Shown here: piece by piece, positions 3,844-35,863 of the stretch | Layout of the letters: each line of letters starts with the position of its first letter | Position numbering within the stretch: position 1 is the first letter of the stretch | Source: a virus | Length of the DNA: 35,863 bases | Reading direction: 5' to 3' (one strand) | UHGV virus genome: UHGV-0129071 | The notes under the pieces: model-generated | Told to the model about the DNA's origin: nothing | The model's database searches: none | Seen by the model: the letters and a program-made list of their open reading frames with translations, nothing else | Position numbers and translations under genes: made by a program

Positions 3844-4812
3844 TTAGTAGGTTATTTTTGTTGCGAATACTTCGCCTTTTACGATGGCTGTTATGATATT
3901 TTTAGCAACATCTTCTGATGCGCCAACCTTGATAAGGTCAGCAAGTATTTTGTTATTTACTTCTTTCTGGTGAGCTTTATCCTTTGCTCTACGCTCTTCT
4001 TCGTCCTTGATTCTTTTTTCTTCTGCTATTCTGGCTTGCTCTTTTGCTTCAGCCTCGCGCCTGATTCGTTCAGCCTCCTCCTGTGCTTTTCGGCGTTCTG
4101 CTTCAATTGCCGCCTGCTTTTCTCTTTCAGCTCGTTCTGCTGCCTCTTTTGCTTCGCGCTGTGCTCGTTGCTCGGCTTCAATGCGTTCACGCTCTGCACG
4201 TTCCGCTGCGGCCTTAGCTTCTGCTTCTCGCCTTGCTGCTGCTTCAATTTCGGCTTTTGCCTTTGCTTCGGCTTCTGCTCTGGCTTTCTCTTCAGCTTCT
4301 CTTTTTAAGCGTTCTTCATGCTCTCGCTTTTCCTGCTCCGCTTTGAGTCTTGCCTCTTCTCTTTGGCGGTCAAATTCGCGATCCATCAAAATCGCTATTT
4401 CATGGTCAGACTCAATTTGCTTTGCGAGAGCTTCAGCTGCTGCCTTAGCTTCTTCTTCGGCTTTAATCCGCGCCTGTTCTTCCTCATAATCAGTAAGAGG
4501 CTGGCGCGCCTTGGCTTTCAGTTCATCAAGGCGATCGCGCACTGTCTTGCGGTTAGCATCAATTAGCTTTGGAATTTCCTTCAGCTCAGCAACAAGGTCT
4601 TTGCCAAGACCATCGAGATATGTTTTCGTCTGCGCAACTTTATACGCCAGAGAAGCGATCTCCTTTCTGCCCTTTGCCGTTGTGATATCAGGCACAAAGG
4701 ACATAACTTCACGTTCAACCTTTTGAAGGATTTCTTCAATCTGGTCTGCAGACTGAAATACAGTCATTGCATTTGCTTTTTCAATAACAACTAAGTCTGT
4801 TACTTCACTCAT
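3844..4812 (-). CDS. coiled-coil protein with long E/A/K/R-rich low-complexity segment (DUF1351-like companion of Rad52-type recombinases)
   Basis: 322-aa ORF; about 150 residues of AEAKA/ERAERE repeats; located in recombination module. Confidence 0.55.
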   Translation of the reverse strand: MSEVTDLVVIEKANAMTVFQSADQIEEILQKVEREVMSFVPDITTAKGRKEIASLAYKVAQTKTYLDGLGKDLVAELKEIPKLIDANRKTVRDRLDELKAKARQPLTDYEEEQARIKAEEEAKAAAEALAKQIESDHEIAILMDREFDRQREEARLKAEQEKREHEERLKREAEEKARAEAEAKAKAEIEAAARREAEAKAAAERAERERIEAEQRAQREAKEAAERAEREKQAAIEAERRKAQEEAERIRREAEAKEQARIAEEKRIKDEEERRAKDKAHQKEVNNKILADLIKVGASEDVAKNIITAIVKGEVFATKITY

Positions 4813-4847
4813 ATATCCTCCTTAATTTGTATGCGTCAAATCCGCGC

Positions 4848-5159
4848 TCAGGCTGCTGAGGTTTCTTCTTTCAGGCTTTCGATATATTTACGTGGGTCGT
4901 CGTAACATTGGCATTCGCTGTACCAATCTACCCAGCGATCAGTAAGCCCCATCTCTGATAAATCTTCATCGGTAAGGCTCTCATTCCACATCTCAAGGCC
5001 GTTAGCATTGCAGTAATCAGGCTTGATGTTGTTGTCATACTGAAAGGCGTCATAATCAGCCAGTGCGTCCATCAGGCGAACACCCTCTTCAACACTTGCC
5101 ACTTCTACGATGAACGGCTTCATCGGTACTTGCGGGATATGCCAGACACGTAATTTCAT
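4848..5159 (-). CDS. hypothetical protein (103 aa)
   Basis: ATG at 5159 with GGAGAA SD (track ORF extends to 5213 without SD); acidic C-terminus. Confidence 0.5.
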   Translation of the reverse strand: MKLRVWHIPQVPMKPFIVEVASVEEGVRLMDALADYDAFQYDNNIKPDYCNANGLEMWNESLTDEDLSEMGLTDRWVDWYSECQCYDDPRKYIESLKEETSAA

Positions 5160-5312
5160 ATTTTCTCCGTTAAAAAAATCGCCCTCACACTGGAGGGCAA
5201 AGAAGATTTCCAATAATCAGAACAAGTCGGCTCCTGTTTAGTTACGAGCGACATTGCTCCGTGTATTCACTCGTTGGAATGAATACACAGTGCAGTGTTT
5301 ATTCTGTTGTTT

Positions 5313-5343
5313 ATGCCAAAAATGAAGGCCGACTATGTGGCCT
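5313..5343 (-). terminator. weak candidate rho-independent terminator downstream of membrane-protein gene
   Basis: On minus strand AGGCC-loop-GGCCT followed by TCATTTTTGG; short stem. Confidence 0.25.
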
Positions 5344-5347
5344 GAAA

Positions 5348-5713
5348 TTACTTAACCAATGATGCTGCATATTCGATAAGGTAAAGTTTTGGAGCAAGCC
5401 AGATTTTCAGCCAGTCGAAATAATTGAAGAAAACAACAATAGAAGTAATCGCTATTCCTGATGTTACAAGTAGCGATAAAAGAACAATATCCGCATCATC
5501 TCCTTTATTCCATGCAAAAATCATCAGATAAACACACGCTATAATCACCAATACACAGATAGCCTGAATTCCAGCTGATGATACGGCGTGCCACATCAAA
5601 AGCTGATGGATGACATCAGGAATCTGTGCCTGGCTAAATGAAACAGCCGCGTCTATTCCATTACTGGCTTTTTGCAGTAGTTCTACGAGAATCTTGTTTG
5701 CTTGTTCTTCCAT
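5348..5713 (-). CDS. small inner-membrane protein (121 aa, 2-3 predicted TM helices)
   Basis: Hydrophobic stretches (ICVLVIIACVYLMIFAW; LLSLLVTSGIAITSIVVFF); located between N and cIII where lambdoid phages carry exclusion/moron genes. Confidence 0.5.
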   Translation of the reverse strand: MEEQANKILVELLQKASNGIDAAVSFSQAQIPDVIHQLLMWHAVSSAGIQAICVLVIIACVYLMIFAWNKGDDADIVLLSLLVTSGIAITSIVVFFNYFDWLKIWLAPKLYLIEYAASLVK

Positions 5714-5772
5714 ATATCCCCTTGATTGTAATAAGCATGAAATTATTTACGGCCAAAAAATAAAGGCCACCA

Positions 5773-5973
5773 TCAGGCAGCCTTGTTGTTCTGTTTACCA
5801 AGTTCTCTGGCAATCATTGCCGTCGTTCGTATTGCCCATTTATCGACATATTTCCCATCTTCCATTACAGGAAACATTTCTTCAGGCTTAACCATGCATT
5901 CCGATTGCAGCTTGCATCCATTGCATCGCTTGAATTGTCCACACCATTGATTTTTATCAATAGTCGTAGTCAT
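5773..5973 (-). CDS. hypothetical Cys-rich small protein (66 aa)
   Basis: CGQFKRCNGCKLQSEC motif; ORF in leftward operon. Confidence 0.4.
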   Translation of the reverse strand: MTTTIDKNQWCGQFKRCNGCKLQSECMVKPEEMFPVMEDGKYVDKWAIRTTAMIARELGKQNNKAA

Positions 5974-6096
5974 AAGGATAGTCCTGGTATTGTTCCATCA
6001 CATCCTGGGGATGCTCTTCGAACTCTTCAAATTCTTCTTCCATATCTCACCTCAAATAAGTGGTTTGCTGCGAAAATAAATCCGCTTAAGTTACCT

Positions 6097-6234
6097 GTTA
6101 TTTATCCCACCAAGTTCCGTATCTATCTATCCAGTTACACCAATCATCGACACTCCATTTTGTCGTGTCGCATTTTGGCAACTGGCATGAATATCTACCT
6201 TCTTTGTAAAGTCGGCGTTTGACTTTCTTGAGCA
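6097..6234 (-). CDS. hypothetical small Cys-containing protein (45 aa)
   Basis: ATG at 6234 with GAGGTGA SD; not in ORF track; immediately downstream of N. Confidence 0.3.
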
Positions 6235-6243
6235 TGGCTCACC

Positions 6244-6549
6244 TCAATCGTAATAAGCTGGAATTGATTTTCCGCGTTGCTTCTGGCGGCCTGAGCAAGT
6301 CACACCCATTTCACAGCGTGGCTTGCGGTAGTAAATACGGTTCTGTTTACGCTCGACTTCATCTGCCTTCTTGCAGAGAAGGCTTCCGAGTGATGCTGCT
6401 TTGTCTGCTCTGACGCAACCAGAGAGCTTTAGCGCAATTTTTCGCGCCAGTCGCTGTTCTTGCATTGCCTGCTCACGTTGAGCCTGTCTGCGTGCTCTGC
6501 GGCGATTTCTGGCGTTATCGTCAGCCAGATATGTAATGACTACTGTCAT
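6244..6549 (-). CDS. N: antitermination protein N (phage 21-type)
   Basis: Arg-rich N-terminus (NARNRRRARRQAQREQ) and ...LARKIALKLSGCVRADKAASLGSL... recalled from phage 21 N; first gene downstream of PL/nutL. Confidence 0.8.
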   Translation of the reverse strand: MTVVITYLADDNARNRRRARRQAQREQAMQEQRLARKIALKLSGCVRADKAASLGSLLCKKADEVERKQNRIYYRKPRCEMGVTCSGRQKQRGKSIPAYYD

Positions 6550-6654
6550 GTTGACCTCCGATGATTGACTTTGGCGGTGACGCGCCGGGTGCTTATCTTC
6601 CGGTTGCCGTCGTGCAGCTGCACTTCACGCCACCCCAAAGCCAACTACTCTTTG

Positions 6655-6697
6655 GTTCCCGCATTTCGGCGGGACAATCCCATCAATGTTAAAGAGC
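6655..6697 (-). promoter_or_regulatory. nutL (boxA GCTCTTTAACA plus boxB hairpin)
   Basis: On minus strand GCTCTTTAACA (boxA consensus) followed about 12 nt later by hairpin TCCCGCCGAAATGCGGGA, between PL and N. Confidence 0.5.
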
Positions 6698-6742
6698 CTG
6701 CCAATCTTTTCCGTTTGGCTTCCAGCGTCCTGCTGATGGCTT

Positions 6743-6771
6743 AAATTTAAGATCTCTTTAATTAATGGTCA
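6743..6771 (-). promoter_or_regulatory. PL promoter with overlapping OL operator
   Basis: Minus-strand TTGACC-17bp-TAAATT; operator-like ATTTAAGATCTCTTTAAT (6744..6761) fits the P22 operator pattern ANTNAAG-N4-CTTNANT. Confidence 0.5.
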
Positions 6772-6837
6772 AGAGTATTTTTGAAGAAAACTTAAATTTT
6801 CTTTCGTAACTTAAGTTTGGCTTTGATTTTTAAAGGA

Positions 6838-6862
6838 AATAAAAAAAAGGGGCGAATGCCCC
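6838..6862 (-). terminator. rho-independent terminator after c2
   Basis: Minus strand GGGGC-ATTC-GCCCC hairpin followed by T8, immediately after c2 stop. Confidence 0.5.
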
Positions 6863-6863
6863 C

Positions 6864-7514
6864 TTATGGAAGGTTTGCTAGTTTTGCATCGACAACTACG
6901 CCGATGATTTTGCAGTTTCCGTTGATCTCGATCATCGGATATTGTGGGTTAAGTGGTTTTAGAAACTTCCTGCCTGCATCAATAACTAACTTCTTGAAAG
7001 TTGCCTCGTTTTCTCCTTCGAGCTTTGCAACTACCAGTTTCCCGTTACGCGGCTCTACTTCAGGATCGACGAGTATTATCATTCCTTCAGGGATACTGAG
7101 ACCGGCCGGAGCCGTCATTGAGTCTCCCTTCACGTCCAACCAAAACGAATCTTCTGAACAGTCTACGGTTGTATCGTACCAGTTATCTATTGCACGCTTA
7201 TGATATGGTTCTACAGCTTCCATCCAGCATCCTGCGCTCACCCAGCTAATCAGAGGGTATGACCCTCTTGGATCATGCCTACTGTGATAGGCAATGTTTG
7301 AAAGACTTTCCTCTCCTTTCATCAGATAGTCAGGGGAACACTTCAACGCATTAGCCAGGGCGAGAAGATTCTCTCCATTTGGCTCTGTCTCAGAGCGTTC
7401 CCACTGAGATATGGCAACATTAGACACGCCGACCATCTTTCCAAGTGCGGCCTGCCTGATCTTGAGTTCTTTTCTCCGAGCGCGAATGCGCTCTCCCATC
7501 AATTGAGTTTTCAT
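6864..7514 (-). CDS. c2: C2 repressor (CI-type, HTH plus LexA-like S24 autopeptidase domain)
   Basis: 216-aa ORF MKTQLMGERIRARRKELKIRQAALGKMVGVSNVAISQWER... near-identical to recalled P22 C2; divergent from cro across operator region. Confidence 0.9.
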   Translation of the reverse strand: MKTQLMGERIRARRKELKIRQAALGKMVGVSNVAISQWERSETEPNGENLLALANALKCSPDYLMKGEESLSNIAYHSRHDPRGSYPLISWVSAGCWMEAVEPYHKRAIDNWYDTTVDCSEDSFWLDVKGDSMTAPAGLSIPEGMIILVDPEVEPRNGKLVVAKLEGENEATFKKLVIDAGRKFLKPLNPQYPMIEINGNCKIIGVVVDAKLANLP

Positions 7515-8361: not shown

Positions 8362-9214
8362 TCTTGCAACCGTAACACATTTAAGGCCTTCACAACGGCC
8401 TGTGGAGCGTCGTGTGGCAGAAGTTGAAGATGGTTATACCCGTCTTGCAAATGCCCTGTATGAAGAGCTTATCGGCGCAGATTTAACGAAAAATCAGAGC
8501 AAGGTTGCCCACGCCATATGCCGTAAAACATACGGCTACGGTAAAAAGATGGATCGCATCTCTGATAGTCAGTTAGCTCAAATTACCAGGCTGCCAAGAC
8601 AGAAGGTAAACAAGGCCAAGAATGAGCTTATCGCGATGAAGGTTATCCTTCGCGAAGGCCAGCAAATCGGGCCTAACAAGAACATCGAGGAATGGCAAAT
8701 AGAAGGGTGTCACTACTCTGGTGATAATGTCACTGCATTGGTGACAAAAAGTGTCACCAAAACGGTGACAGCGCTGTCACCAAAACAGGGACACACAAAA
8801 GAAACTATTACAAAAGAAAAAAGAAATAATAAAAACACTATGTCCGAAAGTGTTCGGACGGAGTGTGAAAAATCACCTGACCGTCACGAAGAAACCGACA
8901 AGGCATTCGAGGAAATATTCTGGTGTGCAGGCATGCGGAAAGCCGGGAAGAAAAACGCAGCTTCGGCATTCAGAACACAGTTCAGGGAATGGCGTAAAAC
9001 TACCAGGGGTACGGCAAGCGAGTTTGCCACGATGTTGGCAGAAGACATCGCATGCAGGAATGGTAAGCAGTTCGGATTCGACAGGTTGTTACCATCGAGC
9101 TACCTGAACGGTCAACGCTGGAACGACGAAAAGCCAGAAACCATTCAACCACAATCCAAACCATCATCCGCAATCACCGTATCGAAAACTGGCTACGTGT
9201 TTTTCGACAGGTGA
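8354..9214 (+). CDS. replication initiator (lambda O-like / P22 gene 18-like)
   Basis: 286-aa ORF following c1; contains origin iterons inside coding sequence as in lambda O; N-terminal DNA-binding-like region. Confidence 0.7.
8720..8838. repeat. replication origin: palindromic iterons GGTGACA-N4/5-TGTCACC followed by A-rich tract
   Basis: GGTGATAATGTCAC (8720..8733), GGTGACAAAAAGTGTCACC (8740..8758), GGTGACAGCGCTGTCACC (8764..8781), then AAAAGAAAAAAGAAATAATAAAAA. Confidence 0.55.
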
Positions 9215-33057: not shown

Positions 33058-35196
33058 ATGACAGACATTACAGCCAATGTTGTAGTGAGTATGCCTTCGC
33101 AACTCTTCACTATGGCGCGTTCTTTTAAAGCCGTAGCCAATGGCAAAATTTATATCGGTAAAATTGACACTGATCCTGTAAATACAGAAAACCAGATTCA
33201 GGTCTATGTGGAGAATGAAGACGGTTCTCACGTTCCTGTTTCGCAACCAATAATCATTAACGCTGCTGGATATCCGGTATATAACGGACAGATTGCCAAA
33301 TTCGTTACCGTGCAAGGCCATTCTATGGCTGTTTATGATGCGTATGGTGCGCAGCAGTTCTATTTTCCTAATGTGCTGAAGTATGACCCTGATCAACTAC
33401 GGCAGCAATTAGAAGACCCGGATGGAGCTAAAAAATATCCTGAATTGCAGATATCTCGGTGGAGGGACGATTGTGATGTAAGAGGGTGGGGGGCAAAAGG
33501 CGATGGTATAACAGATGATACATCTGCATTGATCTTGGCTGCAGAATATGCACGAGAATCATCCAAAACATTACGAGCGGAAGGTAATTTTATTATTACG
33601 GAGACATTAAATCTTCGTAATGTCAGCCTCGAAATGACCAATGCTGTTTTTACCATATCCCACTCAGGAATAGGGGTATTGCTTGGCGGGAATGCATCAA
33701 ACCCTAACAACCCAAGACAAAACTTCGGAACGATTATCAGAAATTCTGGTATTTCATCTGAAACGACACCGGATATTCGTATTATCGGGGCAAAAGGGCA
33801 GCATATAAACATTGAGCGTTGCGACTACTTACAGTTATATGCAAATTATAATGCTTCGGTGGCATCGACGGATTATTCAATAGCATACTCAACCTTTAAC
33901 CTGAAAAAGGTCGATACAATTCATTTTCTTGGAGTTGAGAACGGATGGATAAATGAAAACTATTTTTATCTGAATCGTACGAATAATATCATTTTCGCTG
34001 ATAATCCATATCATCATAACCACAATAAGTTTTATGGTGGAACTATGGAGGGGGCAGGTAAAATTGATATTCAAAGAGGTGATAACAATTACTTCTACGG
34101 GTTTCGTTTTGAACGAGATCCATCATCCCAAACTAACCAACAGTTGATAATTAACTTTGGTGAATATACGTGGAATAACTCAATTGAAGCTACATGGTTA
34201 AGTTCTCCTTACTATACAAATGAGCCATACAATCCATCACCTTACACTTATGTCGAGGTAACTGATAATGGCAAGGGGAATGCAGTATTTCATATTCAGG
34301 AAAATATATCCGATGAAGTAACATTGTTTTCTTTAAATGCTAACACCCCATTTATATCCAGTGCTAACAATGGAGAAGTTGGTGTATTAGCATTTCAAAC
34401 AGATGTAGATGGTTTATATAATATCCGTCACCTGGTTTCTTCTAAGTTTGCTTTTATGCGGAATTTTGGGTTGTTATGGGAATCTGGAGATGTACCAGTA
34501 AGAAATGGTGATATGTTTACATTCTCAGCAGATACGGCATCGTTTCGCATTTACCTGTATGCATTAGATGGAGATGGGAATGTCATAACTTCACAAACAG
34601 AAGCAATAACCTCTTCTATGCAATGGGATTCATCTAACCATAGATATGCTACTGTTGCTAACATTTCTTCCATTAAGATCAGGATTAATAATGAAGGGGT
34701 TCCAGTTAGTGCAATTCGTTTAGCTGTGTATTCTGGTGGTAATGTAGCGAATACTGCATTTTCATGGCTATGCTTAACTGGTAGATATTACAAAAATAGC
34801 ACATCCTTGCCAAGGAAAAGCAAAGATAACTTCACCTTAAAACAAGGAAAAGCAATTACTTATTATAGTGATACTGATATTAGTATGGCTAACATTGGTT
34901 CAGGAATTACCTGTTATAAAACCGATTTATCTGAACTCAAAATTAATCTTGTAAGGGGCAGGTATGTAGTGAAATCAATTTCAGGCAGTGAAATATATGT
35001 ATACCAAGGAACAGTCACTTATTACCCTCCATTCAGTGATATCAAATTGGTATATACGGATGGGGTTGAAAATAAATTATTAGATGTGCAAAACATCTCT
35101 TCAGAAAAGATTACTCTTGCAGATACAGTACCATCAGCTATATCTGCAGGTGATTTTGTAGATATTATTGTTACAAAGACGAAATCTATTTTATGA
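33058..35196 (+). CDS. tailspike protein (P22 gp9-type N-terminal head-binding domain, divergent receptor-binding domain)
   Basis: 712 aa; N-terminal about 115 aa ([11 protein letters not shown]...[19 protein letters not shown]...VLKYDPDQ) matches recalled P22/HK620/Sf6 tailspike head-binding domain; remainder differs from P22. Confidence 0.85.
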
Positions 35197-35518: not shown

Positions 35519-35626
35519 CGAACACATAATTACCAATGAGACAAAACTGAGACACACAAAGCTTTGCACTGGATTACAAGGCTTTGTGTCATTCTCTGGA
35601 GTGCGATATGTTCTGATGACAAAAAA

Positions 35627-35668
35627 TTAGCGCAAGAAGACAAAAAATCACCTTGCGCTAATGCTCTG
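35627..35668 (-). terminator. hairpin with T-run (minus-strand orientation), possible terminator of a leftward transcript entering from beyond window
   Basis: Perfect 10-bp inverted repeat TTAGCGCAAG-N15-CTTGCGCTAA; on minus strand followed by TTTTTT. Confidence 0.3.
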
Positions 35669-35863
35669 TCTCAGGTCACTAATACTATCTAAGTAGTTGA
35701 TTCATAGTGACTGGATATGTTGTGTTTTGTCGCGTTTTGCAGTCTATTATTTAATCATTAAGTAATCTAATGCTATGATTTTTAAATTATTTATGTGGTT
35801 TTGTCATCCTTTAGGTGAAAAAGGTTGAGTCGCAAAGCGGAATGCATCTAGCATAAAGCCTTA

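Follow-up and report, generated by a model that had tools for sequence, protein, structure and literature searches.

A conserved RNA hairpin at the 5′ boundary of the PreS small RNA unit of lambdoid phages: a candidate RNase III-type processing signal

Imperfect stems of approximately 20 bp occur in several phage early transcripts, including the N-leader and sib sites of lambda and R1.1 of T7, where they are cut about one helical turn from the loop. In T7 R1.1, an internal loop restricts cutting by RNase III to one strand. In E. coli, cuts within such stems are the work of RNase III, and RNase E is specific for single strands. Both enzymes act in the biogenesis of DicF from the Qin prophage, where RNase E makes the 5′ end of the small RNA (sRNA) and either RNase III or termination makes its 3′ end. 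As outlined in PMC12197685, which cites the work of Faubladier, Cam and Bouche (1990), DicF is a prophage sRNA that is cut from an operon transcript by the combination of termination, RNase III, and RNase E.

A more recently described phage sRNA is LPR1/PreS of lambda, which binds Hfq, is ~88 nt in length, and is processed to a form of ~68 nt (Silverman et al., 10.1101/2024.10.31.621285). It belongs to the lytic cycle only, being absent in lysogens and present within 10 min of prophage induction; its 3′ end is the terminator tL2a, and it activates the translation of dnaN and supports phage DNA replication, with Hfq binding and the regulation of dnaN and alaS demonstrated for lambda only (10.1101/2024.10.31.621285). 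Primers used for cloning and in vitro transcription (P810, P1103, and P969) set the +1 of PreS at GAGCAATGTCGCTCG / GAGCAATGTCG... (10.1101/2024.10.31.621285); this published +1, which rests on sequencing coverage and the ~88-nt band, is possibly off by a few nt. The preprint makes no mention of a hairpin, a stem-loop, or 5′-end biogenesis. The hairpin that is the subject of the present work lies at 34003–34050 of lambda, with the +1 at 34011; according to the preprint the sRNA starts after it, and the homology arm for the full deletion ends in ...GAGTGAATACACG, leaving the hairpin in place in the deleted lambda (10.1101/2024.10.31.621285). Part of the same region also has an older designation in phage Sf6 (AF547987), where it is annotated as “bsq4; boundary sequence” and “terminator; homology to phage lambda; tL2A”. 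That annotation denotes a mosaic junction sequence without a product, and neither the hairpin nor the sRNA is in the description.

The DNA analyzed here, referred to as the window, is the entire 35,863-nt stretch of virus genome UHGV-0129071, and the coordinates of the relevant features are collected in Table 1. A preliminary description of the window had reported a perfect 9-bp inverted repeat in the early-left (pL) operon, in the gap between a membrane-protein gene and the next gene, and the gene order confirms this placement: the repressor, N, ral, and the membrane-protein gene are followed by the hairpin and sRNA unit. The repeat thus sits within the early-left operon, which is transcribed from the minus strand. 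The pL-like promoter is presumed to be the source of the precursor transcript, and the window's ORF list contains no rightward gene near the hairpin. In lambda, the corresponding block sits between ral and ea10; the window differs in having the membrane-protein gene between ral and the unit, and a gp17-like gene after the unit instead of ea10. A direct repeat, GGCCTT[T/C]ATTTTT(T)GGC, is present at 5752–5768 and 5315–5330 of the window (minus strand), forming the 3′ half of the terminator-like hairpins after ral (5763–5784) and after the membrane-protein gene. Lambda has a single copy of this repeat, and the membrane-protein gene therefore looks like a module inserted at it.

Table 1. Features of the early-left region of the window and of the PreS unit within it.
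Feature	Position	Strand	Basis or remark
P22 c2-type repressor	6864–7514		Upstream of the pL operon genes
pL-like promoter (TTGACC-17-TAAATT)	6744–6772	minus	Promoter scan; ~1.5 kb upstream of the hairpin
N-like antiterminator	6244–6549		Upstream of the hairpin in the pL operon
ral	5773–5973		Upstream of the hairpin in the pL operon
Membrane-protein gene, 121 aa	5348–5713	minus	Upstream neighbour of the repeat
Terminator-like hairpin with U-run, just past the membrane-protein gene	5326–5343	minus	Terminator scan
Full hairpin in pL-sense RNA, lambda/window form	5251–5298	minus	Inverted-repeat scan and folding; in both MFE and centroid structures
Universal hairpin core (GCAC...GAGC), 16 pairs and one A/A mismatch	5256–5293	minus	All type-A copies, any upstream context
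Perfect 9-bp inverted repeat, GTGTATTCA / TGAATACAC	5261–5288	.	Read directly
Inferred cleavage position, G45 (5260) / G46 (5259, PreS +1)	5259–5260	minus	Preprint primers
Mosaic block of hairpin, sRNA, and terminator, 122 nt	5172–5293	minus	BLAST; Sf6 bsq4 annotation
Homologue of lambda sRNA LPR1/PreS, 88 nt	5172–5259	minus	Sequence identity to lambda; primers
Second small hairpin in the 5′ part of PreS (GUCGCUC...GAGCCGAC)	5226–5252	minus	MFE and centroid structures
Single-stranded PreS seed region	5200–5228	minus	Covers the LPR1-M1/M2 mutated positions and the alaS pairing at 42–56
Intrinsic terminator, tL2a homologue (GCCCTCC-AGTGTG-AGGGC + T7)	5172–5200	minus	Terminator scan; Sf6 annotation tL2A
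gp17-like superinfection-exclusion gene	4848–5162	minus	Next gene after the repeat

The repeat is present exactly as first claimed, with GTGTATTCA at 5261–5269 and TGAATACAC at 5280–5288 separated by the 10-nt spacer ctcgttggaa. By size alone it is within chance expectation, as the window contains eight perfect 9-bp inverted repeats with loops of 3–20 nt against 3.2 ± 2.4 expected from first-order Markov simulations. It is, moreover, the core of a longer hairpin with 22-nt arms (5251–5272 and 5277–5298) that are 82% complementary, and the window contains no longer inverted repeat. Folded as minus-strand RNA, the hairpin comprises 20 pairs, including two G·U, together with two 1×1 mismatches and the tetraloop CAAC (5273–5276); its energy is −24.9 kcal/mol (z = −6.3 versus shuffles), it still forms when 186 nt of context are folded, and it ranks eighth among the distinct 48-nt loci of the window. 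Conservation, not the size of the repeat, sets this hairpin beyond chance, and a chance palindrome is rejected only because of the stem extension, the conservation, and a second allele, the latter two of which are taken up below.

The preliminary description had further stated that the repeat is not a canonical terminator, and this was borne out. No T-run directly follows the 9-bp repeat on either strand, the terminator scan was negative on both strands at 5251–5298, and the A+U-rich stem, which is followed by GAGCAAUG and lacks a U-run, rules out an intrinsic (Rho-independent) terminator. What had been missed were the full length of the stem, the true terminator 60 nt downstream, and the known sRNA gene. 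Rfam covariance models searched against 4800–6900 at E ≤ 1 gave no relevant match, the sole listing being a chance match to a snoRNA. A 33-aa ORF that starts at the GTG of the repeat (5261–5362, plus strand) was discarded as spurious, since it is antisense to the operon and unconserved past 5293. Among other repeats in the window, three adjacent inverted-repeat units (TGTCACC...GGTGACA; 19-nt arms, 84% complementary) at 8728–8793 are iteron-like and possibly represent replication-origin repeats, and two strong inverted repeats with 13-nt and 19-nt arms are found near the right end, at 35554–35589 and 35618–35670.

Judged from its sequence, its operon position, and its tL2a-type end, all of which match, the segment downstream of the repeat is identified as the PreS/LPR1 locus of lambdoid phages. 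As in lambda, ral precedes it in the pL operon and tL2a closes it, and its sequence is identical to lambda from the +1 through the terminator stem, including an exact match of the seed. The lambda +1 maps to position 5259 of the window and the last T of the terminator to 5172, a length of exactly 88 nt that agrees with the ~88-nt northern band; the preprint's numbering of the alaS pairing (positions 42–56) likewise agrees with a +1 at 5259. Within the hairpin, this position is the 14th paired base of the 3′ arm, which puts the start of the mature sRNA in the stem. The terminator provides the 3′ end of PreS and its Hfq-binding U tail. The ~68-nt processed form would be expected to start near 5239, in the AU-rich loop of the second small hairpin.

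BLAST searches against phage records returned two groups of neighbourhood matches that overlap only at ~5156–5293, and this short block is 95–100% identical in 331 phage records, lambda included. In its 122-nt form it is 95–100% identical in lambda, Sf6, H-19B, and Stx phages. Exact-pattern scans, among whose patterns was the seed region, gathered 246 loci. Between 5293 and 5172, these loci share at least 95% identity with the window; outside these limits identity drops sharply, to 60–80% for ~35 nt and then to less than 40% on the upstream side, and directly after the T-run on the downstream side, the fall over the two edges being to below 40–70%. The conserved unit therefore consists of hairpin, sRNA, and terminator. 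With one limit at the hairpin base (5293) and the other at the T-run (5172), the block supports the hairpin as part of the sRNA unit. PreS is 99–100% identical across 146 loci, and the sRNA body (5258–5201) is 99–100% invariant across the compared loci. The A-rich tract AACAACAGAAUAAAC at 5299–5313 (minus strand), just 5′ of the hairpin, is 65–80% conserved and resembles either an (ARN)n Hfq distal-face motif or an RNase E-prone segment.

The limits of the conserved block are also those of the Sf6 annotation. The bsq4 of Sf6 maps to 5181–5293 of the window and its tL2A to 5172–5200, and the upstream homology breakpoint at 5293 is the end of bsq4. As befits a boundary sequence, the block joins unrelated modules at its two edges. 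Of 5,426 complete E. coli genomes, 2,237 (41%) carry the 122-nt unit; a single genome may have as many as six copies, and 20 copies are plasmid-borne. In the 12 E. coli example matches listed, no annotated feature lies under it. Exact PreS matches were also recovered from assemblies of Pseudoxanthomonas, Shewanella, Bradyrhizobium, Pseudomonas, Kitasatospora, Arthrobacter, and other unrelated taxa (L006, L007, L009, L012–L018, L020, L021, and L024). Several of these are on contigs of ~48.4–48.5 kb with ~1x coverage, and the matches look like contamination by lambda control DNA rather than prophages.

The preliminary description had proposed a search for the palindrome elsewhere. Within the window, no further copy of the half-site is present, ruling out a dispersed DNA motif, and the half-site with one mismatch has 14 matches against 8.5 ± 2.7 expected. 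Among related loci, all 235 evaluable sRNA copies carry a hairpin at the 5′ position of PreS, each with at least 13 predicted pairs. The form seen in lambda and the window, type A, occurs in more than 20 unrelated upstream contexts and ~11 downstream contexts, and the hairpin is therefore linked to the sRNA and not to a neighbouring gene. One copy of a CACTG repeat is missing from many of the upstream contexts, so that the six lowest pairs of the lambda/window stem, in distinction to the core, are not universal.

A second allele, type B, was found at 65 loci in two upstream contexts and at least five downstream contexts. Its stem sequence is unrelated, and homology to the window resumes exactly at the +1. 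When the pairs of the two alleles were compared with a structure-anchored script (MAFFT had put both gaps in one arm), stem positions 5–13 were found to be changed on both arms in type B, with eight of the nine positions still paired (P ~0.002 for independent random arms). A compensated change in a palindrome can also come from templated (quasi-palindrome) mutation at the DNA level, without selection on the RNA. Common to both alleles are positions 1–4 (G-C, C-G, A/A, and C-G with the +1) and 14–16 (A-U, U·G, and U-A), the three unchanged top pairs sitting 10–12 pairs from the proposed cut. Position −1 is weak or mismatched in every allele: canonical type A has U·G there, a common type-A variant (41 loci) has U/U, and type B has C/U. 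In addition, G·U pairs give every allele a more stable fold in the pL sense than in antisense, with energies of −20.2 versus −14.6 for type A, and −14.4 versus −12.6 and −13.4 versus −11.6 for type B. Single-base variants of the stem break or keep pairs in a ratio of roughly 10 to 8 and do not discriminate between the strands. Two IUPAC-negative scans for a third hairpin allele gave only a point variant (C44 to U, forming G·U) and one degenerate copy.

The other end of the unit is replaceable as well. In three loci (L083, L125, and L222), tL2a has been swapped for an unrelated intrinsic terminator (GCCGCTC-TATAT-GGGCGGC and a T-run) located ~55 nt after the PreS +1, with hairpin and body unchanged, and this swap is found with both type-A and type-B hairpins. 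The exchange of hairpin and of terminator around an invariant body shows that both flanking structures behave as replaceable, end-defining modules. One apparent case of a hairpin without the sRNA, in the Stx phage PA45 (KP682389, 245–1587; L249), proved to be an IS insertion that splits the unit, with two “mobile element protein” genes located ~16 nt into PreS. The hairpin of this copy is cut off from the seed and terminator, and PA45 probably lacks a functional PreS there.

Collectively, these results make it very probable that the hairpin is a component of the PreS unit, where it marks the 5′ boundary. A second proposal, which we favour by a modest measure of confidence, is that it is an RNase III-type processing hairpin that would create the 5′ end of PreS. 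The preliminary description had named a protein-binding site, an RNA processing element, and a recombination remnant as possible identities of the repeat, and the processing element appears to be the best supported of these, given that the published 5′ end of PreS falls in the 3′ arm and that the second allele keeps the structure. In the proposed scheme, pL transcription, having crossed ral and the membrane-protein gene, would continue over the hairpin and the sRNA body to tL2a. Upon folding of the hairpin, a double-strand-specific endonuclease, most likely host RNase III, would cut its 3′ arm 12–13 pairs below the tetraloop, between 5260 and 5259, leaving G5259 as the 5′-monophosphate end of the 88-nt PreS, with termination at tL2a (5172) supplying the 3′ end. 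The 68-nt form would result when the second hairpin is cut in its AU-rich loop at a later stage, probably by RNase E. The upstream mRNA would still end in the terminator-like hairpin past the membrane-protein gene, a candidate 3′ protective structure for that message after the cut.

Several aspects of the stem bear on the enzyme. The position of the +1 inside a continuous helix of 14 pairs points to a double-strand-specific nuclease and not to RNase E. At 22 positions and 20 pairs, the lambda/window stem has the size of the RNase III substrate valley; in many phages, those of the H-19B type, only three pairs and a mismatch lie below the cut, and the resulting stem of 16–17 positions rather than 22 counts against the RNase III model. 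RNase III cuts leave a 2-nt 3′ overhang, with pairing, usually including a G-C, at the two positions that separate the cuts (PMC6212723). From the overhang rule, a staggered partner cut is predicted in the 5′ arm, between 5288 and 5287. The two positions between the predicted cuts are U·G and G-C in type A, which fits the in vivo rule, and a C/U mismatch and U·G in type B, which departs from it and, without a G-C, represents a weaker fit (PMC6212723).

The closest mechanistic precedent for such a scheme is DicF, which has no sequence relation to the PreS hairpin and differs in that its 5′ end is made by RNase E, whereas RNase III is proposed for that of PreS. With the N-leader, sib, and R1.1 stems the likeness is geometric only, cleavage being predicted in the present case, and a weak or unpaired position adjoins the scissile bond in a way reminiscent of the internal loop of R1.1. 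The rules on proximal and distal boxes in RNase III hairpins belong to this general background. Searches of the open-access literature found no RNase III or processing site near tL2a, and it is possible that such a site was mapped earlier, in the tL2/pL processing papers of the 1980s.

Another means by which the hairpin could serve the unit is as a structural insulator or protector rather than a cleavage site, either shielding the upstream mRNA from 3′ exonucleases or capping a longer PreS precursor against 5′-end-dependent decay. The 5′ end of PreS would then arise through RNase E, another nuclease, or breathing of the stem. Many operon-embedded sRNAs are released by RNase E, the AU-rich AACAACAGAAUAAAC just 5′ of the hairpin is RNase E-like, and the hairpin is stable, conserved, and located downstream of the stop codons of the upstream genes. 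Nevertheless, the mapped +1 is inside the helix and not beside it, and the sequence at the +1 (ACG/GAG) is not AU-rich. The hairpin also co-segregates with the sRNA and not with the upstream genes, and the last of these is already followed by a terminator-like hairpin of its own. We therefore consider a purely protective role unlikely, though it is the strongest competitor of the processing hairpin.

The suggestion of a recombination remnant stands in part, as the hairpin is at the edge of the annotated bsq4 and many independent mosaic junctions are found at its base and at the opposite edge of the block. It is improbable, by contrast, that a boundary sequence for the exchange of lambdoid modules is the whole explanation, with the repeat having no function of its own. 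The block contains a functional sRNA, which would be enough by itself to explain conservation; moreover, retention of a hairpin through the replacement of nine stem positions would not be expected of a mere linker, nor would a preference for one strand by way of G·U pairs.

It is also conceivable that the element is a promoter for PreS, or a terminator of antisense (rightward) transcription. On the plus strand, the T-rich TTATTCTGTTGTTTAT follows the extended stem, and the flank GAATAA is conserved in all contexts. The promoter scan found no sigma-70-like site upstream of the +1 in either type A or type B, however, and a promoter making PreS was rejected on that basis. PreS is absent in lysogens and appears with pL activity, and the lack of a sigma-70-like site together with its appearance only after induction fits a product of pL. 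As for an antisense terminator, the hairpin is weaker on the plus strand and no rightward gene is nearby, and we hold both variants of this explanation to be very improbable. Finally, a DNA site for a dimeric regulator or recombinase, as the perfect dyad and its 10-bp spacer might imply, deserves almost no credence, as the window has no other half-site and near-matches only at chance level, type B has an unrelated sequence at the same place with the pairing kept, and phages of many immunity types, which differ in repressor and integrase, share the identical element (lambda, Sf6, H-19B, and the c2-type phage here).

Already known are the sRNA PreS, through the 2024 preprint, as well as the terminator tL2a and the boundary sequence bsq4. 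In the open-access literature searched, we found no account of the hairpin, its co-inheritance with the sRNA, the isostructural second allele, or the link between bsq4 and PreS. PreS is among the few phage sRNAs with a demonstrated host target (dnaN), and its unit resides in 41% of complete E. coli genomes, Stx-phage lysogens included, while going unannotated in the records examined.

A more far-reaching idea, and a doubtful one, is that the hairpin constitutes a self-contained, exchangeable “pri-sRNA” cassette in which the RNase III cut also acts much like sib retroregulation in lambda, removing the 3′ structure of the upstream message and coupling the decay of ral and superinfection-exclusion mRNA to sRNA production. 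The ~28-nt top of the stem might also be released as a second small RNA. If this were true, it would make structured RNA genes, and not recombination linkers, of lambdoid “boundary sequences” in general.

Returning to the processing hairpin itself, the practical gains from its recognition are modest, namely a better annotation model for PreS and a direct mutational test of its biogenesis. If the hairpin is indeed a processing signal, the functional unit would be the 122 nt of hairpin, sRNA, and terminator instead of the 88-nt sRNA, and the output of PreS would depend on host RNase III as well as on read-through from pL. Moreover, the boundary sequence bsq4 would gain a functional explanation.
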